A stretch of 64,000 nt of DNA from sequence record ON862890.1; one strand, given 5' to 3'. This document shows, one piece after another, positions 1 through 13,686 of this stretch (the stretch's first letter is position 1; every line of letters begins with the position of its first letter). Both the position numbers and the translations under genes were made by a program. This DNA comes from Escherichia phage A221. The notes below the pieces were generated by a model. The model saw nothing but the letters and a program-made list of their open reading frames with translations. It was not told where the DNA came from and made no database searches.

Positions 1-14
1 TAGGGGTATTTGAA

Positions 15-3000
15 ATGGCTAATAAACCAACACAGCCTGTTTTCCCTCTCGGTCTGGCGGCTGAAGAGCAGTCTACTTTGGCTGGTGTCCTCAACACGGG
101 TACGATTGAGCATGGACCAGATGCTGTCCTGACTTTACCCGAGGGTAATGCCAGCGCAGGACTCCCGTCTTCCGTTCGCTACAATGCCGACTCCGACGAA
201 TTTGAGGGCTTCTATGAAAATGGTGGATGGTTGCCGCTGGGTGGCGGTGGTATCCGCTGGGAAGTCCTTCCGCATGCCTCTACGGCAACGCTCACTGAAG
301 GGCGAGGCTATCTCATTAATAATACCACAGGGGCATCTACAGTGGTTCTCCCTTCCCCTACGCGTATTGGGGAATCCGTTACTATTTGTGATGCTTATGG
401 GAAATTTGCCACTTACCCATTGACCGTGTCTCCTTCTGGAAATAATTTGTATGGCTCCACTGAAGACATGGCTATAACAACTGATAACGTATCAGCAACG
501 TTCACTTGGTCTGGACCTGAACAAGGTTGGATTATTACATCCGGCGTCGGTCTTGGCCAAGGTCGTGTCTATAGTCGTGAAATCTTTACAAAAATTTTGG
601 CGTCTGAAACAAGTTCTGTCGCTCTCAATACTCCACCAACAATCGTGGACGTGTATGCTGACGGAAAACGTCTTGCGGAATCCAAATATTCACTAGATGG
701 GAATGTAATCACTTTCAGTCCTTCTTTGCCAGCCAGTACAGAACTTCAGGTGATTGAATATACTCCTATTCAATTGGGTAATGGCGGTGGTTCTAGTTCT
801 TCTACGATTACTTGGGTCTATAATGGGGGTTCAGCGATTGGCGGTGAAACCGAAATCACGTTGGACGTCGTTGTTGACGATGTTCCGGCCATTGATATAA
901 ACGGAAGTCGCCAGTATAAAAATCTGGGATTCACATTCGATCCATTAACCAATAAAATCACTCTTGCGCAAGAACTGGAACCAGAGGATGAAGTTGTTGT
1001 AATTATCAATGGAACACCAAACATCTATAATCAAATTGATTATACTTTGCGGGAAGTTGCTCGTGTAACCAATGTTAAAGATACAGAGGTCGTTTATTTT
1101 AGTGTTGGTGCTGCGTTAAGTGGGTATAAAGTTATTTATGACAAGGAGACGCAAAGGGCTTATCCCTTGCCTGCTGATATTGTCCCTGGTACTACTGCTG
1201 TCAGCCTTAGTTCTTCCGCTGTACTTGTGCATTCCGCGGGTTCTGTAGATCTCGGGGAATTGGCTGTATCTCGTGAAGAGTACGTCACATTGTCCGGGTC
1301 ATTTGATACCGGTGTAACAGTTAATACCAAGAATGAACTGGTTGTTTTTACTGACAGCAAGTACCGTTGGGATGGTACATTACCTAAACAAGTCCCAGCA
1401 GGTTCAACGCCTCAGTCTACTGGTGGTATAGGTAAGGGTGCTTGGGTTAGTGTTGTTCGTGGCGTAGTAGTACCACAGCTTAGTGAAGAGTTGAAACGTT
1501 CCTATGCGCGTTCAGGTTTAAACCTAGTAGGGGATTTCAACGCAGGGGCAGTAATTCAGAACGTATCTGAAGCGTTGCTGGATACCCGTACTGGGAAGGT
1601 ATATACGGTAAGTTCCAGTGCTTCTTTCCCCCTGAGTGTTGTATCGGGTACTAACCCTGAGGCCAGTCCTGACTTATATCTAGAGGCCACTGCAATAACT
1701 TCTAAACATTATATAGACCCTACGGATTATGGTATACTCCCAGGTAATACGGCAGCAGTAAACTCTACTCGCCTGAAGGCATTGATTGAACAAGTTAACA
1801 CTTCTGGTGGCATTATCAAATTCCCGGCAGGTACTTACAATGTAGGGGATATTAGTAGTAATTGGAAAACTGTTGGGGTATGGACTAATGCCCTTGCACG
1901 AGGTATAGAAGGTGCCGGCCCGGGATTAACTACCTTAGTAGTATCTGCACCTGCCTCAGGTAATGATATCTTCACAGGAGGCGGTTACTGGATGTCCTTT
2001 AAGGATATCAGCTTTATACTAGATACTTGGGTTCATACTTCGGACTATACAAGCAGTTCGTTCGGCTCTACCGTAAACTTGTTTAATATGCTTACAGTAG
2101 GCTCGCCTAGATTGACGTTAAGTAATGTACGTGCTGTTGGCTTTAATATGGCATTCGGGTTCTGGACTTGGGTATCAGTGATTGAGCACTGTGAGGCCCA
2201 GCAATGCAGGTACGCCTTTGTATTTAATAAAGGTACTAGCATAACAGCTAACTCCCTGTACGCTCAGGATTCATGGTATGCTTATATTATTGGGGCTACT
2301 CCTAGTAATTTTATAACAGATCCTAAATCCGACTCCAGCATGATTCGAGGTGGACTCTACTATAGCACTCTCCAGAACTGTGCTTGCGACAGAACTGTTA
2401 AAGCAGGTTACACCGTAGGCGAGTACGACGGCTCCCTTATCTCATGTGGCTCGGAGATTCCTTATGAAACTGCAGCTAATATTCATAGAGGTATTGTAGA
2501 CTACCCTCCTCTTGTAGATAGTGCAGGTTCTCCGTCTGTTATTACTATGGACAGTAATACTATTATACAGGAAATGCATGTACTTAGCAATCTTACAGTC
2601 TTCCGCACCGGTGCAGGTATAGTTAATATCCGCAGAAATAACCCTACAGTTCATATCCAGGGACTGATTTCCCGGCAAGGTAATGCAGGTGCAGGTGCAG
2701 GGCTTATTAATCTTCTGACTTTCGATAGAGCAGTGACTACGTGCAACGTTACAGTAGATGGTCGTCTGCAGAGCTTGTACGGTCGCAGCATTAGCTTTGG
2801 CGCACTGTATGGAAGTACCGTACAACGTAGGTGGCACGGTGAGGCTGTACTTACATGCGACAGTATCAGTACATACTTAGGATACAATACGCCTCTGATG
2901 AACTTCGGATTCACTAACCATGCTCTCAGAGGTAACGGTAAGCTCAGGTTTGCGTTGACTGGTACAAGCAACGTAGATAGTCGTGCATTAATACACTGCA

Positions 3001-3317
3001 CTATAGGGGACATTGCGTCGCAAGCCAGCTTATATAACTTCCTAGGTACAGTAACTATCCGTGCAGTATATACAGCGGCTTCACCTAATGACCCTAACCT
3101 TACTTTTGCGCAGGCATATGTAAACGGTAATATGAGTTCTGAGGTTTCAGTAGCTATTGAAGACAGTACCCGTAATGCCGGAGGCAAGGATGTGGTTCTG
3201 ACATTCAGTAGTAACAGTGGTGTGTACTTAAGGGCTTACACTGTACAAGCTGAAGTTACTACAGGTGCCCGGTGGGTTGACGGCAGTGCTCCTAAGTATC
3301 TGGCGTGGGTGGAGTAA
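15..3317 (+). CDS. tailspike protein 1 (putative polysaccharide depolymerase, beta-helix type)
   Basis: 1100-aa ORF; ATG at 15 in ggggtatttgaaATG context; N-terminal MANKPTQP module; internal VVYFSVG/GYKVIYDK/QRAY module shared with ORF 6099-8396; C-terminal FPAGTYNVGD pectate-lyase-like signature. Confidence 0.65.
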   Translation: MANKPTQPVFPLGLAAEEQSTLAGVLNTGTIEHGPDAVLTLPEGNASAGLPSSVRYNADSDEFEGFYENGGWLPLGGGGIRWEVLPHASTATLTEGRGYLINNTTGASTVVLPSPTRIGESVTICDAYGKFATYPLTVSPSGNNLYGSTEDMAITTDNVSATFTWSGPEQGWIITSGVGLGQGRVYSREIFTKILASETSSVALNTPPTIVDVYADGKRLAESKYSLDGNVITFSPSLPASTELQVIEYTPIQLGNGGGSSSSTITWVYNGGSAIGGETEITLDVVVDDVPAIDINGSRQYKNLGFTFDPLTNKITLAQELEPEDEVVVIINGTPNIYNQIDYTLREVARVTNVKDTEVVYFSVGAALSGYKVIYDKETQRAYPLPADIVPGTTAVSLSSSAVLVHSAGSVDLGELAVSREEYVTLSGSFDTGVTVNTKNELVVFTDSKYRWDGTLPKQVPAGSTPQSTGGIGKGAWVSVVRGVVVPQLSEELKRSYARSGLNLVGDFNAGAVIQNVSEALLDTRTGKVYTVSSSASFPLSVVSGTNPEASPDLYLEATAITSKHYIDPTDYGILPGNTAAVNSTRLKALIEQVNTSGGIIKFPAGTYNVGDISSNWKTVGVWTNALARGIEGAGPGLTTLVVSAPASGNDIFTGGGYWMSFKDISFILDTWVHTSDYTSSSFGSTVNLFNMLTVGSPRLTLSNVRAVGFNMAFGFWTWVSVIEHCEAQQCRYAFVFNKGTSITANSLYAQDSWYAYIIGATPSNFITDPKSDSSMIRGGLYYSTLQNCACDRTVKAGYTVGEYDGSLISCGSEIPYETAANIHRGIVDYPPLVDSAGSPSVITMDSNTIIQEMHVLSNLTVFRTGAGIVNIRRNNPTVHIQGLISRQGNAGAGAGLINLLTFDRAVTTCNVTVDGRLQSLYGRSISFGALYGSTVQRRWHGEAVLTCDSISTYLGYNTPLMNFGFTNHALRGNGKLRFALTGTSNVDSRALIHCTIGDIASQASLYNFLGTVTIRAVYTAASPNDPNLTFAQAYVNGNMSSEVSVAIEDSTRNAGGKDVVLTFSSNSGVYLRAYTVQAEVTTGARWVDGSAPKYLAWVE

Positions 3318-3437
3318 GCGCAGGAGTAAGTGCACCTGCACTGCACCCCCCTGTACTACCTGATTACGTACAGGCATAGTGTGTGTCCTGAGTGCGCGTG
3401 TAAACGTGTCACTTAAAAATGATATACTCACCTGAGG

Positions 3438-3513
3438 CCCTCCCTCACCCTCAACGCGCCCAATTGCCCCCATAGGGGGGTGGCCTAGGGAAAACATAGG
3501 GGGTGGGGGAGGG
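3438..3513. repeat. C-tract / G-tract imperfect inverted repeat enclosing CCCCC-ata-GGGGG palindrome
   Basis: ccctccctcaccctc (3438-3452) is complementary to gggggtgggggaggg (3499-3513) allowing two G-U pairs; palindrome at 3467-3480 between the arms. Confidence 0.6.
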
Positions 3514-3661
3514 TTTTGTTGTACCTCAAACAATCCTTTATGCAGACTGTTTTAGTCAATCTCGACTTAACTAACCTGAGAAAGTCCCTATGGGAAATGA
3601 ACCAGATAACGTAACTCTAGCTAGACTCGAAGAGAGACTAAGAAACATTTTCGAAAACCAA

Positions 3662-3690
3662 AACCCCGCTCTGGCGGGGTTCTTATTATA
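3662..3690 (+). terminator. intrinsic terminator-like hairpin
   Basis: ACCCCGC-tctg-GCGGGGT stem-loop followed by tcttatt. Confidence 0.55.
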
Positions 3691-3718
3691 TCCATGTTCA
3701 TAAATTTTATTAGTTCAG

Positions 3719-3725
3719 GCTAAAT
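3719..3725 (+). promoter_or_regulatory. late-promoter-like motif CTAAATA(cccc)
   Basis: CTAAATAcccc 38 nt upstream of tailspike 2 start; recurs before seven other genes. Confidence 0.5.
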
Positions 3726-3762
3726 ACCCCATATTGGCAAATCCTCTATGGGGTATCTTCAA

Positions 3763-6051
3763 ATGACCAGAAACGTCGAGAGCATCTTTGGAGCGGTCGT
3801 AACAGCTCCGCACCAGATTCCATACACTTACACAGCAACGGGCGGAGAGAAGTTTATCTCCCTCCCTTTCTACCCTGTCACTGGTATAGTCACAATCAAC
3901 GGTGGTATGCAAGTTCCGTTAGACAACTTTGAAATCGATGGAAATACGTTGAATCTCGGACGCGCATTATCCAAAGGTGACGTTGTGTTCTGTCTGTTTG
4001 ACAAGATTCTGTCTCCAGAAGATTATAAAACCGGGATTCGAATCTATAAGTTTAAGGCTATAGGAGGTGAAACCGAGTTCACTCCTGATTACACATCTTA
4101 TGGAGTCCAATCTCTTTATATCGGTGGTGAGTACAAAACACCCGAAATTGAATATTCCTATGACAGCGCGACAGGGAAAGTGTCTTTGCAAACTGCACTG
4201 ACTGCAGGTGTTTGGGTAGTCGCTGAGATGTCTGTTAAACAACCGAATATCAGTCCGTTGTTTGACCGAAGTATTCAAGAAATCGCCCGTTCAGCTAATG
4301 TAAAAGACTCTGAAGTAATTCTCAGCACTGATACTACTCAGTCCCTCAATGGTAAGAAGGTTGTTTACTCTGTTAATGAACAGAAGTCTTATGGCTTGCC
4401 GTCGTTACCGTCCAATGTCTATATTGGCTCCGTATCCAATGGGCAGTTAACCTATAATCCTGGTCCTATTACAGTCCCTCTAGTTGAAGTGCCTGATTCG
4501 GCTGCCAAGTTGAAGAGTGAACTTGCTGCCAATACTGGGTCAAGTATGATTCATACTAGCTCCGGTGACACTGTTGAAGAATCTCTTGTTAAGTTAAAAG
4601 ACTCTTTCCGATTCGTAACTCCAGAACAGTTCTATGAAAATCATCCAGGGGAAACTGACTGGGCCGTTATGATAAATGAGGCATACGCATATGCTCGTTC
4701 AAATAATAAGAGCGTGTTGCTTGCCAATGACTACAATATATCTTCAAGTGTCATACACTATGATGGTTTGAATGTTTTATGCACAGGTAGAATCATAGCT
4801 TCCCCTTCCGGGAATTACACTTTTACCACTGCGCAAAGTAACACAGAGAACGCTGCTTATATTATTACTACAGAAAATGGAGTGTTTAATAATGCTAAGT
4901 CTGCCTCTGTTACGGGACTAACCTTAACATACACCGCGAACAGAGAGCCTTCCGGCTACACTGACCAGCATATTGCTTCGAAAGGAGTAGTAATTACCGA
5001 CATAGCTAATGTGTATATACGCAATCTACAAACTTTCGGCTTTCTTAACGGTGGGGTTGACGTTGGAGGGGTTTCTGGGAAAGGTTACGAAATAGTAATC
5101 GACAAATGTTTATCATGGATTCACGCATGGGAGGATTCAGAGAAGATCGGTTTCCGTTCTAATGTAACCGATTCAACATTCAAAGATGTAGTAACCGTCG
5201 CTTACGGTATCGGAATTCACGATGTAAAAGGTAGTGGTACAGTTTTTATCAACCCTCACCCGTGGGGTTATCCTGTAACTTCAACCGATTCATCCCAAAA
5301 ATACCCTAATATGCAGTGTAAAATACCGTTTCTCATTTCTGGTAGCGCTTCAACTTTCATTAGGCCTTACGCAGACACTGTGACAAAAATTAACAGTTCA
5401 CTTGGCTCAAGTAGGTCAAACGGTGGTGTAGGGTTTTACATAGAGGGTTGGCGTAATAAGATAATAGCGGGGAATGCGTTGATCCATCCGGAAGACGTAA
5501 ACACAAACATGGCTTTGGTGTATTTTAAAGGAGAGTCTGCCAGAAATGAGATTGAAATTGCAGATGTAATAAATCCATCTAAGTTAATTGTTGAAAGAGC
5601 ATCATACGACTCTGGTCATCAAGATGCATTGTTTACTAACCTTGTTAGGCTCCCTGAGTATATCGCTGGTAATTTAAGCAATCTTACAGGAAGCATATCA
5701 TTCGATGGCGCAGGAATAACTTCTTCCGGCACATATAGTTTACGCAGAGACGGTGAATACATAGACATTTCTTTACTTATTAATGTGACGGCAATTTCCA
5801 GCCCTTCGGGTTCGTTATCCGTTACTCTGCCTCGTGGACTTAAGTGCTATTTTGGGCCTACATCAGAACCAAGCCAGAATTCCTGCTTTGGGAACATCAA
5901 CCAAAGCAACATTGGGGTAATAGCTGTTTTGAACGGCAGCTCTATAGAATTCTTTTATAAAACGGCAAATGGTTCAAGAACCCAAATTAACGCAGCAGGT
6001 GTATCAACTGGCGCTCTTGAGCTATCCATACGTGGTAAGATTAGTAATTAA
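3763..6051 (+). CDS. tailspike protein 2 (putative depolymerase)
   Basis: 767-aa track ORF from 3748; ATG 3763 preferred by ggggtatcttcaaATG context matching gene 1; CTAAATA motif 28 nt upstream; Ser/Thr/Gly/Asn-rich beta-helix-like C-terminal half. Confidence 0.55.
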   Translation: MTRNVESIFGAVVTAPHQIPYTYTATGGEKFISLPFYPVTGIVTINGGMQVPLDNFEIDGNTLNLGRALSKGDVVFCLFDKILSPEDYKTGIRIYKFKAIGGETEFTPDYTSYGVQSLYIGGEYKTPEIEYSYDSATGKVSLQTALTAGVWVVAEMSVKQPNISPLFDRSIQEIARSANVKDSEVILSTDTTQSLNGKKVVYSVNEQKSYGLPSLPSNVYIGSVSNGQLTYNPGPITVPLVEVPDSAAKLKSELAANTGSSMIHTSSGDTVEESLVKLKDSFRFVTPEQFYENHPGETDWAVMINEAYAYARSNNKSVLLANDYNISSSVIHYDGLNVLCTGRIIASPSGNYTFTTAQSNTENAAYIITTENGVFNNAKSASVTGLTLTYTANREPSGYTDQHIASKGVVITDIANVYIRNLQTFGFLNGGVDVGGVSGKGYEIVIDKCLSWIHAWEDSEKIGFRSNVTDSTFKDVVTVAYGIGIHDVKGSGTVFINPHPWGYPVTSTDSSQKYPNMQCKIPFLISGSASTFIRPYADTVTKINSSLGSSRSNGGVGFYIEGWRNKIIAGNALIHPEDVNTNMALVYFKGESARNEIEIADVINPSKLIVERASYDSGHQDALFTNLVRLPEYIAGNLSNLTGSISFDGAGITSSGTYSLRRDGEYIDISLLINVTAISSPSGSLSVTLPRGLKCYFGPTSEPSQNSCFGNINQSNIGVIAVLNGSSIEFFYKTANGSRTQINAAGVSTGALELSIRGKISN

Positions 6052-6056
6052 ACAAT

Positions 6057-6078
6057 CCCCTCTTCGGAGGGGTTTACT
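6057..6078 (+). terminator. intrinsic terminator-like hairpin
   Basis: CCCCTC-ttcg-GAGGGG followed by tttact, just after tailspike 2 stop. Confidence 0.55.
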
Positions 6079-6098
6079 AGAAAAACAAAGAGGTTGTT

Positions 6099-8396
6099 AT
6101 GAACGAAATGTTCTCCCAAGGCGGTAAAGGCTCTACTGGTATTCTTACCAATAAGCAAGCCATTGCTCGTAAGTTTGGTGTTAAGCAGAATGAAGTAGTC
6201 TACTTTTCTGTGGGAGTGGATTTAGGTGGTTACAAAGTTATTTACGATAAGACTACTCAGCGTGCTTATTCATTACCTGTACTTCCGGTAGGAACCACTG
6301 CTGTAAGCCTTAGCAAACAGGCAATCCTGGTTCATTCAGCAGGTACAGTTGATTTGGGTGAACTGGCTGTCACACGTAGGGAATTCGTGTGTTTATCTGA
6401 CTCTTTTGCCACTGGTTTGGTAGTGAATACCAGAAATGAGCTTCTGGTGCATAATGGCATTGGTTATACCTATTTAGGTACTCTACCTGTAACAATTACC
6501 GCAGGAACTAATCCAGTTGACAATGCGGACTGGAAGCCACAGACAGATCCTAATTTACGGGAAGAATTAGCGTCTGACTCCGGCTTCCAGCTGGTTCCGT
6601 CTGTTGAAAAGCAACGATGGCTTTACGCAGGGGATGTGCGTGCTTTTGGAGTTGTCGGTGATGGGTCTGATGAGGCATCTAGTTTACAGTTAGCCATTAA
6701 CTCGGGTAATGTTTTTGTTCCCCCGGGCATGACGGTTTCTCATTCACAAGTTAACATACCAAAAGGTACAATTTTTACTTTCGGTCACGATGCTGGGTTG
6801 ACATCATTGACCGCTAATGCTCTTAATTTTGTCAGCGAGAGCCAATTCAGCTTGCTTTCCCCCGCAGCTTTCGGAGCAACGTCCATCACATTAACATCTG
6901 AGGTGACAGGAACTGGGTATACCCGGGCGTTGATAATACGCACTGAGGACACAAGTGACGCTTGGTATATTGCCAACGCACAGAATCCGGATGTAACCGG
7001 ATACCAAGGCGAATCTTTTTTAATCTCGTCCATATCAGGTGCTACCGTAAATTTAGCAACGGCTTTACCGTGGGACCTAACTACCACCAATTCGGTTATT
7101 TATCTTATAAAAGGCAACGCTACTAAGTTCATCGGGGGAATCTTAAAAAATTCTGCGTCAGGGTCTAGCTACATGTACCAATCTGTGGGGGCTTCGCTTA
7201 TAGAGTTCCATGGTACTGTTTTTGATTATAATGGAAATGGCGGTTCAAGGCATGATAACGCGTACGGTGTGGTGTACCACAACACTACCCATACCGGGCG
7301 TGTCGGAAATGGTAATATATTTTTTGGTTACGGATCTACAGATTGTACTGTTACAGGTACGACCCACATTGGAGGGACTGGTGGGGATGCGCAAATAATA
7401 TCTTATGCTGGCTGCCGTAACATCCGTACATCCCATAACACCCTAAAACCTACGGCCAACAACGGAGGTATATATTTTGGTGCAAAATGCTTCGACTGCA
7501 ACACCCATGCTGATTATATTAAAGGCGGAAAGTATGGGGTTATGGGGGCATTTGGTGCTCAGCGTATTGTTGTGGACTCGCTGGCGGCAGACGATCAAGT
7601 ATCAGGCGTTATCTTTATGGAGCAATGCCAGAACTTTACCATCACAAACCCGTCTATTAGATTCATAAAGACTGGCACTCAAACAACCGCTGCGATATTA
7701 ATTAAGGACTGTGATTATGTGACAGTGGATGCAAATGTCCCTGTAAATACAGGGGCGAACGGGTATATAGTCAGTATGTATAGCGCGCCTGCATACGCCC
7801 TGACAGTTAGAAAAAATATAAACATTACGGTAAAAGGTACTGGCAGTGTATACCTTACTAGCCCTATGACCAATTTCTCGATTAAAGACTGTTTAACATC
7901 TGGCAATATAACAGTTTACTACGCCAATGGTACGTCTACTTACGGCAGGGTTACGCGTAATAGTTGCCGGTTTTTAGTAGCTCAAAGTTTCCAATATTGT
8001 GACATAGATAGTAACACCATTGCGGGGGCTTCTGATTCTGAGGGTATACGCCTCGGTGGTAACTGTAGATGGAACAACGTATATAGAAACAAGGTTAGCG
8101 GGGTTACTACGGCATTCTTCGTTAACTCAGCACCCGCAAATCTATACACGAATGCATTTCATGATGATAACGTAATAGATTACTCAACAGTAACCACCTT
8201 CGTATCATCTCAGACTGGAACCACCACGCCAGTTACTGGAGCTTTAAACCCTGCTCCAGTAAGGAATTTCTTTCTCCCGGCAACAGGTTGGCAGGATAGC
8301 CCTACGGTAAAAAGAACTGTTAGTGGCTGGAGGCATAAAGGCACTACAACAGGCACAGCGTCCGATTGGTTTACTATCCCCTCGCCAGAAGCGTGA
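6099..8396 (+). CDS. tailspike protein 3 (putative depolymerase, pectate-lyase-like)
   Basis: 765 aa; RBS aaagagg; N-terminal module about 60% identical to residues 355-445 of ORF 15-3317; AFGVVGDGSDEASSLQLAINSG motif typical of pectate_lyase_3-type tailspikes. Confidence 0.65.
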   Translation: MNEMFSQGGKGSTGILTNKQAIARKFGVKQNEVVYFSVGVDLGGYKVIYDKTTQRAYSLPVLPVGTTAVSLSKQAILVHSAGTVDLGELAVTRREFVCLSDSFATGLVVNTRNELLVHNGIGYTYLGTLPVTITAGTNPVDNADWKPQTDPNLREELASDSGFQLVPSVEKQRWLYAGDVRAFGVVGDGSDEASSLQLAINSGNVFVPPGMTVSHSQVNIPKGTIFTFGHDAGLTSLTANALNFVSESQFSLLSPAAFGATSITLTSEVTGTGYTRALIIRTEDTSDAWYIANAQNPDVTGYQGESFLISSISGATVNLATALPWDLTTTNSVIYLIKGNATKFIGGILKNSASGSSYMYQSVGASLIEFHGTVFDYNGNGGSRHDNAYGVVYHNTTHTGRVGNGNIFFGYGSTDCTVTGTTHIGGTGGDAQIISYAGCRNIRTSHNTLKPTANNGGIYFGAKCFDCNTHADYIKGGKYGVMGAFGAQRIVVDSLAADDQVSGVIFMEQCQNFTITNPSIRFIKTGTQTTAAILIKDCDYVTVDANVPVNTGANGYIVSMYSAPAYALTVRKNINITVKGTGSVYLTSPMTNFSIKDCLTSGNITVYYANGTSTYGRVTRNSCRFLVAQSFQYCDIDSNTIAGASDSEGIRLGGNCRWNNVYRNKVSGVTTAFFVNSAPANLYTNAFHDDNVIDYSTVTTFVSSQTGTTTPVTGALNPAPVRNFFLPATGWQDSPTVKRTVSGWRHKGTTTGTASDWFTIPSPEA

Positions 8397-8414
8397 CTTA
8401 TAACTGTAAAACTA

Positions 8415-8440
8415 AGACCCCATTTGGGGTCTTTTCTTAT
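8415..8440. terminator. bidirectional terminator-like hairpin
   Basis: AGACCCC-attt-GGGGTCT with T-runs on both strands; after tailspike 3 and at the 3' end of the minus-strand open frame. Confidence 0.55.
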
Positions 8441-8760
8441 ATAGAATTTACTGTTTGCATTACCCTAATTGATACTGCTGTTAAGGTGATTACTTGCCCA
8501 GAGATATTAAACATACCCAATTGAATACCTTCTACCATGAAAGGGTCTGTCGAACCAAGTGTGTAAGTGGCTAATACGTTATCTCTGTTGGCAATGTCTG
8601 TACCCTGTACCTTAACACTAGCATCTGAACCTACTACTGTGGTTCCATTGGTTCGCCTTGTTTGCGTTCTCCATTCCCTGGCTGTACCAGCACCCCTGCA
8701 ATAGTTCCTGAAGAATGCGGAGGTCTCGAATCCATGACCATAACCGCAGAAAGATAATCA
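8437..8760 (-). pseudogene. start-less open frame (about 106 codons), possible decayed or frameshifted gene
   Basis: Minus-strand frame is open stop-to-stop with protein-like translation ...GTTVVGSDASVKVQGTDIANRDNVLATYTLGSTDPFMVEGIQLGMFNISGQVITL... but lacks a start; an ATG-initiated 35-codon frame upstream (8741 to 8634) is offset by one nucleotide. Confidence 0.3.
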
Positions 8761-8785
8761 AAGCCCCTTCGGGCTTATTTCTTTC
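8761..8785 (+). terminator. terminator-like hairpin inside noncoding spacer
   Basis: AAGCCC-cttc-GGGCTT followed by atttctttc, 20 nt before the late promoter motif. Confidence 0.45.
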
Positions 8786-8806
8786 TATTCCTCGGTTGGT
8801 TGTATA

Positions 8807-8813
8807 CTAAATA
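8807..8813 (+). promoter_or_regulatory. late-promoter-like motif CTAAATA
   Basis: tataCTAAATAtctc 35 nt upstream of ATG 8848. Confidence 0.45.
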
Positions 8814-8847
8814 TCTCTATAATGGCACCTATCGATGGAGCATCAAA

Positions 8848-11800
8848 ATGCAAGAAATGAACCTCAACCGCCGCCCATATTGGGATGACTGGAATCCAGA
8901 GAAGCGTTTTTCGCGCATCCTATTCCGTCCGGCACCTATCAAAGTTCAGACGCGTGAACTGAACCAGATGCAGACCATCTTCCAGGATCAACTGGAGAAA
9001 CTTGGCAACCATCTGTTCAAAGACGGTTCAATGGTTATCCCCGGCGGCCTAACGATCACCAACACTGCTGTGTCCATGAAGTTCACTCTGGCTGGTGGTA
9101 GTGAGTTCACTGATCTGGAAGGTATCTCCGAACTCTATGTCCTGGGCAAGGACAACAATGCGAAAGCACGCGTCCTGTCCTTGGAACGTTATCCAGCTGA
9201 GCCAGATACAATGTATGCCATCTTAGAGATGACTGAGAGTGGTAGTTCAGACGGTTTCGAAGCTGGCGACAATCTATATTTCAACACCTATGACGTGAAC
9301 GATAACTTCATCCGTGTCGGCTATGGTGTGGCCGATACTGTTGGCGGTTCGATTGTCGCTCGCATGACAAAGGGTGTTTATTTCGTTCGTGGTATGTTCC
9401 TGGATGTTGAACCAACCACTTTGATCGTAGACAACGCATCGAACTCTACATCTCACCGCATTGGCTTCAAAGTTACAGAAACAATCGTGACCGAAGCAGA
9501 AGATGAAAGTCTGTTCTCCAATGCTCAGGGTACTCCGAACTCTAAAGCCCCTGGTGCGCATCGCCTGCGCGTCGACCTCGTGTTGTCTCGCTACGGTTAT
9601 GATGAAGAAGTGGCCGACTTCGTTGAACTGGCGAAGGTGAAAGACGGTCGCATTCAGTCCATGGTCACCCAGTCAACGTACAACATCCTCGAAGACGCCA
9701 TGGCTCAGCGTACCTATGAGACTAATGGTGACTACAACGTCTCTACTCACCAGATCGACCTGCGCGAACATCTGAAACAGAACAACAACGGCGGCGTTTA
9801 CACTCCGGCTGAAGGTGGTGATGAAAGCAAATTCGTGGCGGTTATGAAGCCAGGCATTTCCTACGTTCGTGGTCGTCGTATCGAAAACCTCGGCGAAGAG
9901 CTGGTCATAATTGACAAAGCCCGTGACACTGATATCCTGAACAACAACCCTGTGGCTGTTTCGACTGGCAACTATCTGGTGTCCAAGAACTCCAAAGGGG
10001 TTCCGGTTGTCTCCCGCACAATCCGCTACAAGTTCCTGAACGCATCCAGCGATGTGCAGGCCACCGCCCTGTTGATTTCGGCAGAGCGCTCTGGTACTGA
10101 ATTCCGTCTGTATATGCGCGACCTTGTTGTGACTGGGGACATGGGTACGGTGACCAAAGTTGCATATGAAGAAAGCGGTACAACGATGTTCTCCTGCGAA
10201 CTGGAGTCCAATCAGTTCAGTCAGAGTTCAGCAATTGACCTGATCTTCCCTCTGCCTGTATTTGGTGTGAAGACTCTAGCACCTACAGGCACCATCGACA
10301 TCAACTACACCGTCCTGCGGTCAAACAAGATCACGTTGAACGCCGCTGGTGCAGGATCAATCTCTGCTCCTCTGGGTTACAGCTTCAGCCCTGAGTTTTC
10401 ACTGTACTCCGCAGCGAAAGCAGACGGCACTGCAGCTCAGTTTGATATCTCTTCGGGACTGTCCCTGGCTGGTACTCCGGTTGGTTCAGCACTGCAGATT
10501 TCCCTGGGCGCGGGGTACGCCAACCAGTCTATCAACCTGTTGGCATTGATGGTCCGCACCACAGCGACGATCAAGACCAAGACTGTTACTGAAGTCACCG
10601 AGACTGTGACGTTTACTGCGGCGGCCAGCGCACAACTTGGGAACCATGATGGTTACAAGCTGATCAGCGTGAAGAACGCAAATGGCGCTGACGTCACCTC
10701 TAACTTCACTCTGGACGGCGGTCAGCGTGATGCTGCATACTACCTTTCTAACCTCATATCGTCCACAGGAGCCATTTCAGGGACGTTCACGGTGGTGTAT
10801 CAGTATTTCGCTCACAGCTCTGGTGATTTCTTCACAGCGGACTCCTATTCGTCCATCAACTACCCAGACATCCCGAACTATGTTTCATCCAGTTCTGGTA
10901 CTGTGTATGGGTTGGCCGACAGTCTGGACTTCCGTCCCAAGATCACCAGCGGAGCGTCTGACACGGACATGGTTCGCCCGAACACCGCGATCATCCTAGA
11001 TGCAGAGTACTATCTACCTCGTATTGATGCTGTGTATCTGGCCGACAACGGTGTGTTCAACGTTGCGCGTGGTGTGAGTTCCAACAACCTGGCTTCCCCT
11101 GCGATCCCAGACAACAGCATGCGCCTGTATGAATTGATGATCCCACCATACACGGCCAACATTGACGACATCCAGATTCGTACTATCGACAACCGCCGCT
11201 ACACGATGCGCGATATCGGTAAACTGGAGACCCGTATCTCCAATGTCGAATATTACACCTCACTGTCTCAGCTGGAATCCTCGGCGATGTCACAACAGGT
11301 GTTCGATCCAATTACTGGCAACCCGCGCTTCAAGAACGGTATCGCAGCAGACCCGTTCAAAGATTTCCGTCTGATCGACGATTTGTCTGCAGACTGGGTG
11401 GGTTCAATCGACACTGACAATGGTCGTCTGCGTCCGTTTGTTCAGCAGAACGCGATTGACCTGACGCCAGTCGGTTGGAACAACGTTCAGGATGGCATGG
11501 TTGTATGCAACTACACCCGTGAGATCTCTGTCCGACAGGACTATGCAACCACGACCATCAACGTGAACCCGTATGCGGTGTTCAACTGGGAAGGATTCCT
11601 GAAACTGAACCCAACTACTGATTACTGGTTTGAGAACTACTATGTTACTCCACGTGTGATCAACGAAACGATCAACACCCGTGGTGCGATCAAAGAAGGT
11701 TCCGTGTATGGCACATGGCGTACTGTGTCCGTGTCTGAGCGTGTGTGGGAACCGCATGGTGCAGGTGGTGTATGGTGGGGCTATCGCTACCGCACGACTG

Positions 11801-13686
11801 TGTCTACCCGTGACGTCACCACGTACACGTACACCGACAAGACGACCACTACCCTGACTGGCGAGCAGATCGTTGAAACGCAGGTAATCCCATACATGCG
11901 CAAAACGAACATCAACTTCGAAGCCACAGGTCTGCGTCCGTTCACTCGTGTGTATCCGTTCTTCTCTGGACGTGATGTGAGCGCGTACTGTACCCCAAAC
12001 GGTGGTGTACTGGGCGGTGCGTTGAACACTGATGCCAACGGCAACATCAAAGGTGTGTTTGCGGTTCCTCAGAACGAGACTATCAAGTTTAACACGGGTG
12101 ACAACGTCTTCCGTCTGACTGACAGTCCTGTGGACAGTAAGTCTGCTGATGATACCCTGACCAATGCTGAGGCTGTTCATAAGTCCTTCGGCAAGAAACA
12201 GGGCATCCAGAAGACTTATGTCAACACCCGCGTCCTGGGATACACTGCAACCAAGTCTACGGAAAACAAAACAGAGACGGTTGAAGTCGCGAAGTGGAAA
12301 GATCCTATCGCCCAGTCCTTTATGGTTGCCACCAATATCGGCGGCGAATACATCGAAGGGATTGAAGTCTTCTTCTCTACCAAGTCCCGTGATATCCCGA
12401 TCACTCTGGAAATCCGCGAGATGAGCAATGGTCTGCCAGCGACGACTGTCGTCACTCGTAAGACTCTGAATCCATCAGAAGTTTCTATCTCCACAGACTC
12501 TTCTGTGCCGACGATGTTCAAGTTTGATTATCCTGTGTATCTGCAGGCACAGACTGAGTTCGCGATTGTTCTCTTGGCCAACACTCAGGACTACAACGCA
12601 TACATCGCAGAGATGGGCAAGAAGAACTTGCTGACCAACGAGTTCATTGCCAAACAGCCGTACACTGGCGTGTTCTTCACATCTTCAAATGGTACGACCT
12701 GGACTCCAAACCAGACTGCCGATATGAAGTTCCGTGTATATCGCTGTAACTTCTCCGCTGGTTCAAACATCGTGACCTTCGATGCTAAAGTCGGTCCGAA
12801 GATCCGTCCTCTGGGTCTGAACACCGTGAAATGCGTCAACGGTTCTTCAACTGTTACTGTGTACGCTCCGGGACATGGCCTGACTGCGGGTGAAAGTGTT
12901 ACTCTGTCTGGGTTGACGGGTGGTTGTGGTTTCACTCCTGAGCAGCTGAACGCTCAACACACTGTGACTGATGCGACGTTCACGACGTTCAAATTCGTTC
13001 TGAGTTCCAACGCCGACTCCGACGGTCAGATTGGTGGTGAAGCGGCTTCTTTCCTAGGCAACTACTTGGTAGACATGTTCTACGCAAGCGTCACCAATTC
13101 AGCCCTGGAAGGATCTGTGTTGAAACTGGAATACCGCTATCGCGATGCGACCTCCAACTCATTCTCTGATTGGGTTGAGTTCGAATCCGATACGGACGTG
13201 TCTCTGCCGACGGAAGGTATCTATCGTCAGGTGGGTGACTTCCAGGTTCGTGCAACCATGACTCGCAACGAGAGTAATGTCTACACGGCTCCAATGATCG
13301 ACGGTGATGATTTCACTATCATCTTCAACACCTACGGTGTGGATCCGTTTGAAGATGTGTTCAGCTATGTGACCAAGGATATCGGATTCGATAACCCTTG
13401 CACCACTCTGAAGCAATACTTCGGCGCGATGCTACCTTCTCAGTCTTCAATGACTGTGCAGGTTAAGCTGCTGCGCGCAGGCCAGGAAATGGATAATGTG
13501 GCATGGGAAACTGTGACACCGACATCCCCTCTGGTCAATGACGGTTCTGCATTCTTCGAATATGAGTATGACAAGACTGTAGACAGCACCAATCCTTTCG
13601 TTGGCCTGAAGATCCGCCTGCTGGTCAGAGGCAACCGCATAGCACCGCCGTCATTCAAAGATTTCCGTTTGATTGCTCTGGCATAA
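8848..13686 (+). CDS. large virion structural protein (putative baseplate/tail-fibre-associated)
   Basis: Track ORF starts with TTG at 8800 across the promoter motif; first ATG with GGAG RBS at 8848 gives 1612 aa; sits in the late structural block after a CTAAATA motif. Confidence 0.5.
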   Translation: MQEMNLNRRPYWDDWNPEKRFSRILFRPAPIKVQTRELNQMQTIFQDQLEKLGNHLFKDGSMVIPGGLTITNTAVSMKFTLAGGSEFTDLEGISELYVLGKDNNAKARVLSLERYPAEPDTMYAILEMTESGSSDGFEAGDNLYFNTYDVNDNFIRVGYGVADTVGGSIVARMTKGVYFVRGMFLDVEPTTLIVDNASNSTSHRIGFKVTETIVTEAEDESLFSNAQGTPNSKAPGAHRLRVDLVLSRYGYDEEVADFVELAKVKDGRIQSMVTQSTYNILEDAMAQRTYETNGDYNVSTHQIDLREHLKQNNNGGVYTPAEGGDESKFVAVMKPGISYVRGRRIENLGEELVIIDKARDTDILNNNPVAVSTGNYLVSKNSKGVPVVSRTIRYKFLNASSDVQATALLISAERSGTEFRLYMRDLVVTGDMGTVTKVAYEESGTTMFSCELESNQFSQSSAIDLIFPLPVFGVKTLAPTGTIDINYTVLRSNKITLNAAGAGSISAPLGYSFSPEFSLYSAAKADGTAAQFDISSGLSLAGTPVGSALQISLGAGYANQSINLLALMVRTTATIKTKTVTEVTETVTFTAAASAQLGNHDGYKLISVKNANGADVTSNFTLDGGQRDAAYYLSNLISSTGAISGTFTVVYQYFAHSSGDFFTADSYSSINYPDIPNYVSSSSGTVYGLADSLDFRPKITSGASDTDMVRPNTAIILDAEYYLPRIDAVYLADNGVFNVARGVSSNNLASPAIPDNSMRLYELMIPPYTANIDDIQIRTIDNRRYTMRDIGKLETRISNVEYYTSLSQLESSAMSQQVFDPITGNPRFKNGIAADPFKDFRLIDDLSADWVGSIDTDNGRLRPFVQQNAIDLTPVGWNNVQDGMVVCNYTREISVRQDYATTTINVNPYAVFNWEGFLKLNPTTDYWFENYYVTPRVINETINTRGAIKEGSVYGTWRTVSVSERVWEPHGAGGVWWGYRYRTTVSTRDVTTYTYTDKTTTTLTGEQIVETQVIPYMRKTNINFEATGLRPFTRVYPFFSGRDVSAYCTPNGGVLGGALNTDANGNIKGVFAVPQNETIKFNTGDNVFRLTDSPVDSKSADDTLTNAEAVHKSFGKKQGIQKTYVNTRVLGYTATKSTENKTETVEVAKWKDPIAQSFMVATNIGGEYIEGIEVFFSTKSRDIPITLEIREMSNGLPATTVVTRKTLNPSEVSISTDSSVPTMFKFDYPVYLQAQTEFAIVLLANTQDYNAYIAEMGKKNLLTNEFIAKQPYTGVFFTSSNGTTWTPNQTADMKFRVYRCNFSAGSNIVTFDAKVGPKIRPLGLNTVKCVNGSSTVTVYAPGHGLTAGESVTLSGLTGGCGFTPEQLNAQHTVTDATFTTFKFVLSSNADSDGQIGGEAASFLGNYLVDMFYASVTNSALEGSVLKLEYRYRDATSNSFSDWVEFESDTDVSLPTEGIYRQVGDFQVRATMTRNESNVYTAPMIDGDDFTIIFNTYGVDPFEDVFSYVTKDIGFDNPCTTLKQYFGAMLPSQSSMTVQVKLLRAGQEMDNVAWETVTPTSPLVNDGSAFFEYEYDKTVDSTNPFVGLKIRLLVRGNRIAPPSFKDFRLIALA

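Follow-up and report, generated by a model that had tools for sequence, protein, structure and literature searches.

The 5' part of a 64,000-nucleotide (nt) stretch of Escherichia phage A221 (ON862890.1; the whole stretch is termed the window here) was very probably a multi-tailspike host-recognition (tsp) cluster of an Escherichia coli Agtrevirus (Ackermannviridae, Aglimvirinae), encoding a three-branched complex. Its first gene, tsp4, is a clean two-parent chimera, in which an N-terminus of the type found in phages RPN242 and PC3 was joined to a receptor-binding domain of N4-like type. Informative sites placed the crossover at nt 1329–1337, corresponding to codons K439–E441 in the motif 'VNTKNELV', which lies inside a module shared among the tailspikes. 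To the left of this interval (to nt 1328), 55 of 56 informative sites were of the RPN242 type, nt 1212 matching neither parent; to the right (nt 1338 on), the sites matched the gene on an N4-like contig, except where the alignment ends, at a single site of the RPN242 type. Window positions 1–1428 were 97% identical to tsp4 of RPN242, and positions 1073–3456 showed 96.1% nt identity to the region of a 776-amino-acid (aa) TSP1/gp63.1-type gene on a 72-kb contig (Logan SRR28483859), which encodes N4 gp1/gp2-type proteins.

Three tailspike genes and their shared head domain

An earlier reading of this DNA, made from the sequence alone, had proposed three consecutive large tailspike genes, and these were indeed present as consecutive open reading frames (ORFs) on the plus strand, at 15–3317 (ORF1, 1100 aa), 3748–6051 (ORF2, 767 aa) and 6099–8396 (ORF3, 765 aa). 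They matched tail-spike families in PHROG and were homologous, in gene order, to TSP4, TSP2 and TSP1 of phage CBA120, with vriC following. The 25 kb downstream of the vriC-type gene was 98.5% identical to Escherichia phages PC3/PH4 (100% coverage), and 97–98% identical to other phages of the Agtrevirus group from E. coli, Salmonella and Enterobacter; therefore, the window is part of an Agtrevirus genome.

The tsp4 gene (15–3317) encodes a TSP4 homolog, the baseplate-anchored scaffold, which also bears a receptor-binding spike. Residues 1–338 of ORF1 matched the CBA120 TSP4-N structures 7REJ/7RFO (E = 9e-196), and residues 1–480 were 96% identical to TSP4 of RPN242. The anchor domain (AD) and the XD1, XD2 and XD3 domains occupied aa 1 to about 340 (15–1034), forming a baseplate anchor and gp10-like docking platforms, with functions assigned from Chao 2022 (PMC8825819); comparison with the same paper showed that the glycine-rich linkers at Gly76–79 and 250–264 were kept. 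The second gene, tsp2 (3748–6051), combined XD2-XD3 (aa 6 to about 170) with a D1 domain only (aa about 171–262) and a receptor-binding domain. Its residues 6–268 matched full-length CBA120 TSP2 (6W4Q, E = 6e-128), and translation probably begins at Met6 (nt 3763) and not at the mechanical start, 3748; the homologs of AV101, RPN242 and CBA120 begin at the position matching Met6. The third gene, tsp1 (6099–8396), opened with a D1-D2 head (aa 1 to about 158), after which came a receptor-binding domain of beta-helix type; residues 1–201 matched CBA120 TSP1 (4OJ5, E = 1e-55) and also gp63.1 of phage G7C (4QNL).

The sequence-only reading had also described an internal module, about 60% identical between residues 355–445 of the first protein and 26–116 of the third, with a weaker copy in the second. 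Global alignment of the two segments gave 64 identical columns out of 95 (67%; 61% in DNA), the true register being offset by about three residues, and BLASTP extended the match to ORF1 346–505 and ORF3 20–166 (53% identity, E = 1e-39). This similarity is far beyond chance. All of the motifs quoted in support (VVYFSVG, GYKVIYDK, QRAY, GTTAVSLS and LVHSAG.VDLGELAV) were found, with GTTAVSL located at residue 392 of ORF1 and residue 65 of ORF3. The copy in the second protein was weaker, as described, and comprised D1 only: ORF2 177–221 was 42% identical to ORF3 20–63 (E = 1e-5), and ORF2 104–241 was 32% identical to ORF1 274–411 (E = 2e-14), a stretch that covered the XD3-like domain as well as D1. 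CBA120 TSP2 likewise carries D1 only (PMC8825819). By tblastn, neither the module nor the XD domains had further copies elsewhere in the 64-kb window.

This module is the D1-D2 (TD1/TD2) domain, or 'head'. In tsp4 it extended over aa 344–480 (1044–1454), enclosing residues 355–445 and matching the heads of 5W6H, 4OJ5 and 5W6F; in all, ORF1 residues 344–492 matched the D1-D2 heads of the CBA120 TSP4, TSP1 and TSP3 structures. The Pfam family PF18668 (Tail_spike_N, the TSP1/Gp66 N-terminal domain) was matched at ORF1 417–480 (E = 7e-26, 90.5 bits against a cut-off of 25), which spans the second half of the module. ORF3 had no Pfam match at E <= 0.01, though its head matched those of 4OJ5, 4QNL and 9D84.

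The description of this domain as a shared attachment module held in part. By homology with CBA120, only the TSP1 copy would dock, but the head is in line within TSP4, and TSP2 would attach through XD2; by analogy, then, the module would serve for docking in TSP1 but, in TSP4, as an in-line adaptor behind the XD domains. Two roles are proposed for it: as a structural adaptor, it would join the attachment part of each protein to the beta-helix, and it could also serve as the 5' homologous crossover site at which receptor-binding cassettes are swapped, given that conservation of its DNA extends over tsp1, tsp3, tsp4 and N4-like spike genes.

A branched tailspike complex, as envisaged from the sequence, was supported by homology: ORF1 carries the TSP4 anchor and XD1-XD3, ORF2 carries XD2-XD3 and ORF3 the TSP1 head. 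By comparison with CBA120, the N-terminal anchor domain would fix trimeric TSP4 to the baseplate, TSP2 would be joined to TSP4 through XD2-XD2 contacts, and the basic D1 head of TSP1 would dock onto the acidic XD3 of TSP4. The charges of the two predicted partners were opposite, TSP4 XD3 having an isoelectric point (pI) of 4.05 (charge -9) and TSP1 D1 a pI of 9.6 (charge +3.6), while the D1 of TSP4 itself was acidic; this pairing suggests that the electrostatic docking logic established by experiments on CBA120 (PMC8825819, PMC11721090) is conserved. In the CBA120 scheme, a TSP3, where there is one, attaches to the TSP2:TSP4 complex (PMC8825819; review PMC11721090). In A221 the TSP3 position would be vacant, and the docking surface on XD3 of TSP2 would go unused.

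The three C-terminal halves displayed no mutual sequence similarity in pairwise comparison. They had been predicted to be beta-helical and pectate-lyase-like, which was upheld at the level of fold (a right-handed parallel beta-helix), by models for ORF1 and ORF3 and by inference for ORF2, but not as membership of a sequence family; the Pfam pectate-lyase and Beta_helix families (PF12708, PF13229) had no match in any of the three at E <= 10, and only a chance PDZ_1 match was returned. An AlphaFold2 model of the ORF3 C-terminus, built from nine sequences (pLDDT 81.8), was a long beta-helix, for which Foldseek identified LKA1 gp49, phi297 gp61 and AP22 gp54 (probability 1.0), with a K1 capsule lyase also among the best matches. 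The model of the ORF1 C-terminus had a pLDDT of 62, with a good core at residues 85–400, and its Foldseek matches were tailspike-type beta-helices (WceF, Sf6 TSP, Fri1 gp49, Depo32 and CBA120 TSP2). For ORF2, a beta-helix would be expected from its 99% identity to the published model of AV101 TSP2 (PMC10791037). C-termini of depolymerase type, as proposed, were supported by the two beta-helical models together with the identity between ORF2 and AV101 TSP2, for which O82 translucent zones are recorded.

ORF2 and AV101 TSP2 shared 98.95% identity over 762 aa, while the similarity of tsp2 to RPN242 stopped at about aa 239. AV101 TSP2 is O82-specific, producing translucent zones on O82 E. coli, with infection of O82 blocked, and is a beta-helix according to a model (PMC10791037); from this identity, E. 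coli O82 is the most likely target of A221 TSP2. The ORF3 protein was 94% identical to RPN242 TSP1 and 94.6% identical to the tail spike of the Gamaleyavirus nithesis, and the tsp1 gene with its flanks was 93.4% identical in nt to the nithesis tail spike gene. Its receptor-binding domain showed 97% identity to PC3/PH4 and 98% nt identity to RPN242; more distant homologs of this domain (37–59% identity) had N-termini of P22 head-binding, T7 fibre or Tail_spike_N type. It was also observed that, compared with both the window and nithesis, tsp1 of RPN242 lacks 72 nt (24 aa) in frame, at window positions 6556–6628, in the neck joining the head to the beta-helix.

The neck and receptor-binding domain of tsp4 (1455–3317), a predicted beta-helix, represented a very rare sequence type. 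One homolog was found among 5.8 billion proteins and 18 weak homologs among 1.84 billion representatives; tblastn against 50,697 phage genomes gave one match, at 27%, and an exact-sequence lookup of the ORF1 protein returned no record. A blastn search of 5,426 E. coli genomes was empty, which ruled out a prophage source for the domain. The combination of spikes in A221, a likely O82-specific TSP2 with a PC3/RPN242-type TSP1 and a rare TSP4 receptor-binding domain, is new. Each spike would end in a different beta-helix, binding and probably cleaving a different O-antigen, such that the phage could adsorb simultaneously to up to three serotypes. The switchable host range suggested earlier is not implied, given that all spikes are expected to be on display at once.

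Crossovers, intergenic mosaic and the absence of tsp3

The end of TD1, with the motif GTTAVSL, has previously been proposed as a recombination site, and CBA120 TSP4 is 74–79% identical to spikes of G7C-like phages (PMC8432352, PMC10791037). The sequence-only reading had likewise named the shared module as a likely site of exchange, and this was supported by the position of the tsp4 crossover inside it; in the comparison of breakpoints with relatives, the module was conserved at the exchange boundary, and relatives' similarity was lost just beyond the head domains. A second crossover, from AV101-type to RPN242-type sequence, was placed by informative-site analysis at 6095–6097, just before the start codon of tsp1. 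A separate exchange would have supplied the AV101-type tsp2.

The tsp4-tsp2 spacer was a nested mosaic, and only 430 nt in length. Its first part (3318–3456) continued the match to the 72-kb N4-like contig. The spacer also contained a non-coding element of about 115–135 nt (3379–3515, plus strand) with a 17-bp C-rich/G-rich hairpin (3436–3515; fold z = -3.8). The element was about 80% identical to one located close to the right end of the genome, behind the last gene, in more than 200 Klebsiella and E. coli podophages of the genus Drulisvirus; in phage ZH5 the matching element lies 34 nt after the last gene, a 575-aa ORF annotated 'hypothetical protein'. A search of the spacers against Rfam gave nothing credible, the matches to mir-3138 and RsmY (E about 0.45) lying far under gathering scores.

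Overlapping the end of this element was an N4-like (Gamaleyavirus) footprint (3497–3661, plus strand), consisting of the gp63.1-gp63 intergenic region and the first 24 codons of gene 63, with 90–95% identity to G7C, E20, PhAPEC5/7 and others. The gene fragment (63') began with an ATG at 3590, continued with codons MGNEPDNVTLARLEERLRNIFENQ to 3661, and was there cut off and fused to an Agtrevirus terminator. The terminator hairpin (3662–3681) and the conserved pre-tsp spacer following it (3662–3747 together, plus strand) had 77–107 nt matches in relatives, the spacer being repeated upstream of tsp3 and tsp2 in RPN242, AV101, LHE287 and CECAV_050. An identical 63'/terminator junction occurred downstream of tsp3 in PC3/PH4 (5201–5347 of the retrieved stretch), and a longer 63' fragment was present after tsp1 in AV101 (12193–12354 of the retrieved stretch). 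Within the footprint, the window resembled the donor on the left, and PC3 from the junction rightward. A microhomology-mediated join was considered for the right junction and set aside, the identical junction being already present in PC3/PH4.

No fourth spike gene was identified, and the 64-kb window contained no other TD-bearing ORF nor any other copy of TD or XD. Three spikes are a reduced state, in that close relatives carry four; RPN242, AV101, PC3/PH4 and CECAV_050 all have the order tsp4-tsp3-tsp2-tsp1. A direct-repeat search within 1–9000 found no long intragenomic repeats able to explain the loss of tsp3. An engineered kuttervirus is known to have lost tsp3 by recombination. For A221, the loss could be accounted for by a double crossover, during co-infection, from a Gamaleyavirus-like donor into a four-spike, PC3-like recipient, with the left exchange in the TD module and the right one in a gene-63' footprint already present downstream of tsp3. 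Such a single event would both swap tsp4's receptor-binding domain and delete tsp3.

Several points weigh against this account, or against the description of the cluster on which it builds. The recipient was not PC3 itself, as tsp2 was of AV101 type and the footprint was only about 90% identical to that of PC3; therefore, the one-event deletion of tsp3 is a reconstruction and not a demonstration. Few informative sites define the right-hand crossover. The upstream baseplate genes are out of view, just 14 nt of the window preceding tsp4; how the A221 spikes assemble, their enzymatic activity and their receptors are all deduced by comparison with homologs; and confidence in the model of tsp4's receptor-binding domain is no more than moderate (pLDDT 62). 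Finally, Escherichia phage LHE287 (PP761450) lacks tsp3 by a different junction, and three-spike lineages may thus arise otherwise or be older.

This last point leads to the most serious alternative, namely that the three-spike layout was ancestral or independently inherited, and that the donor cassette only replaced the tsp4 domain in a phage already without tsp3. LHE287 has the same tsp4-tsp2-tsp1-vriC layout and a closely related backbone, and other losses are on record, since tsp3 is missing from Limestonevirus phages, and in two Agtreviruses the tsp genes number just two (PMC11414711, PMC10791037). However, the junction of 63', terminator and pre-tsp2 spacer in the window was identical to the post-tsp3 junction of PC3/PH4, whose backbone is 98.5% identical, whereas LHE287 has other receptor-binding domains and a terminator directly after tsp4, with no N4-like footprint. 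An older three-spike layout was accordingly judged improbable, at perhaps one chance in a few, next to the double crossover with concurrent loss of tsp3.

Direction of transfer and comparison with known systems

The tsp1-vriC spacer contained another truncated N4-like gene, on the minus strand at 8440–8694, comprising the C-terminal 85 codons of a protein of the nithesis CDS0006 type. By tblastn, the remnant was 96% identical in aa to residues 124–208 of 208, the upstream part being frameshifted or lost. Many 72-kb N4-like phages have the CDS0006-type gene at full length, 70–90% diverged. RPN242, PC3/PH4, LHE287 and SKML-39 carried the remnant also.

Truncated N4-like genes thus flank both Agtrevirus cassettes at the 3' side, and for this reason the sequences suggest that receptor-binding cassettes moved from N4-like phages into Agtrevirus. 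The converse, that cassettes and flanks passed from Agtrevirus into N4-like phages, could draw on the near-identity of whole genes in both families (93.4% in nt for nithesis, 96% for the N4-like contig), which in principle would allow exchange either way; but the Agtrevirus flanks consisted of truncated, non-functional gene fragments, whereas N4-like phages have full-length copies, gene 63 being the homolog of N4 gp63, upstream of the holin, and the CDS0006-type gene being 70–90% diverged across many N4-like genomes, and reverse transfer was considered quite unlikely. Movement of the nithesis tsp1-type gene in particular from Agtrevirus to Gamaleyavirus was set aside on the grounds that the flank shared at the 3' side is a piece of a gene that N4-like phages widely carry at full length.

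The weakest alternative, that the chimera is an assembly artefact in which co-occurring N4-like reads were joined to an Agtrevirus contig through the similar TD-coding stretch, gains something from the left junction lying in about 200 nt of near identity between the parents, by which an assembler could be misled, and from the exact ORF1 protein being absent from other records, but was regarded as very improbable, given that the right side re-enters Agtrevirus sequence through a 63'/terminator junction also found in the isolated phages PC3/PH4, that AV101 has a longer 63' footprint, that reading frames are intact across the chimera, that a second, unrelated and clean crossover occurs at 6095–6097, and that a misjoin would also need a precise deletion of tsp3.

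Transfer into Agtrevirus may be only the last step of a longer chain, from a Drulisvirus-like right-end element to a Gamaleyavirus spike locus and on to the Agtrevirus tsp4. The truncated N4-like genes (63' after tsp4, after tsp3 in PC3/PH4 and after tsp1 in AV101; CDS0006' after tsp1) would then be more than scars: acting as 3' homologous crossover sites, with the TD module at the 5' side, they would make up a two-handle system of exchange between Ackermannviridae and Schitoviridae, and one double crossover would have given both the rare tsp4 domain and the loss of tsp3. This full scheme is offered tentatively, with somewhat less than an even chance of being correct as a whole.

Among known systems, the cluster resembled that of CBA120 (Kuttervirus; PDB 4OJ5, 6W4Q, 5W6F, 5W6H, 7REJ) in its domain composition (AD-XD1-XD2-XD3 in TSP4, XD2-XD3 in TSP2, D1-D2 in TSP1), in a gene order ending at vriC, in the pair formed by an acidic XD3 and a basic TSP1 head, and in its variable C-terminal beta-helix domains; A221 differs in lacking TSP3, in having three other receptor-binding domains, and in belonging to the genus Agtrevirus. 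AV101, RPN242 and PC3/PH4 (PMC10791037) had 97–98.5% backbone identity to A221 and shared its pre-tsp spacers and gene-63' footprints, but each has four spikes, and none possesses the receptor-binding domain of A221 tsp4. Limestonevirus phages are similar in having no tsp3 and fewer spikes, although their TSP4 is usually without a receptor-binding domain, whereas that of A221 has a complete one.

The gp66/gp63.1 system of G7C (Gamaleyavirus) was comparable in that gp63.1-type spikes have the same D1-D2 head, docking on XD3 of gp66 (Prokhorov 2017, cited in PMC8825819), and whole spike genes of N4-like phages of the Gamaleyavirus type were 93–96% identical in nt to A221 tsp1 and the tsp4 receptor-binding domain. 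Cassette swapping bounded by stem-loops has been described for systems of this type (bioRxiv 10.1101/542787). G7C differs in its podovirus particles, in having two spikes only, and in an anchor domain unrelated to the AD of TSP4. A gp66-type 'tail protein' was also seen in nithesis (2913–5999) and the 72-kb N4-like contig (7053–9950), with XD2-, XD3- and D1-like segments in common with TSP4 and TSP2; it was 37% identical to TSP4 of the window over residues 265–480 and 41% identical to TSP2 over 24–247. Because these segments are shared, TSP1-type spikes would be interchangeable between the two families.

Borders of the cluster and significance

The downstream border of the tsp cluster was formed by a vriC-like gene (8800–13686, plus strand) containing DUF4815 (Pfam PF16075, E = 6e-61), and the corresponding neighbour is annotated VriC in AV101 and LHE287. 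Its true start is likely to be near nt 8848, the position to which the vriC annotation of RPN242 corresponds, downstream of the mechanical ORF start at 8800. Upstream, the window opened 14 nt before tsp4, where baseplate genes are situated in relatives. No tRNA was found in the window, and scans for sigma-70 promoters did not rise above background level. The GC content of the cluster (1–8400), conserved N-terminal parts included, was 41–46%, against 49% in 8800–64000; as the cluster was GC-poor throughout, its conserved N-termini included, GC content did not discriminate between donor and recipient.

The literature already covers recombination at the TD1 motif GTTAVSL, along with branched complexes and the variability of receptor-binding domains (Plattner 2019, Sørensen 2021/2023, Chao 2022), and with multi-spike complexes, serotype-specific domains and head-module recombination all established for Ackermannviridae, the cluster in itself adds little to them. 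The value added is modest, and consists of an exact crossover, the N4-like footprints, and a hint as to how the loss of a spike gene can accompany a cassette swap. With both crossover handles defined, it may be useful for the engineering of phage host range, as well as for surveys of the exchange of receptor-binding proteins across families; for the Ackermannviridae, tsp4 of A221 provides a natural example, at nucleotide resolution, of the crossover that had been proposed for the TD module.

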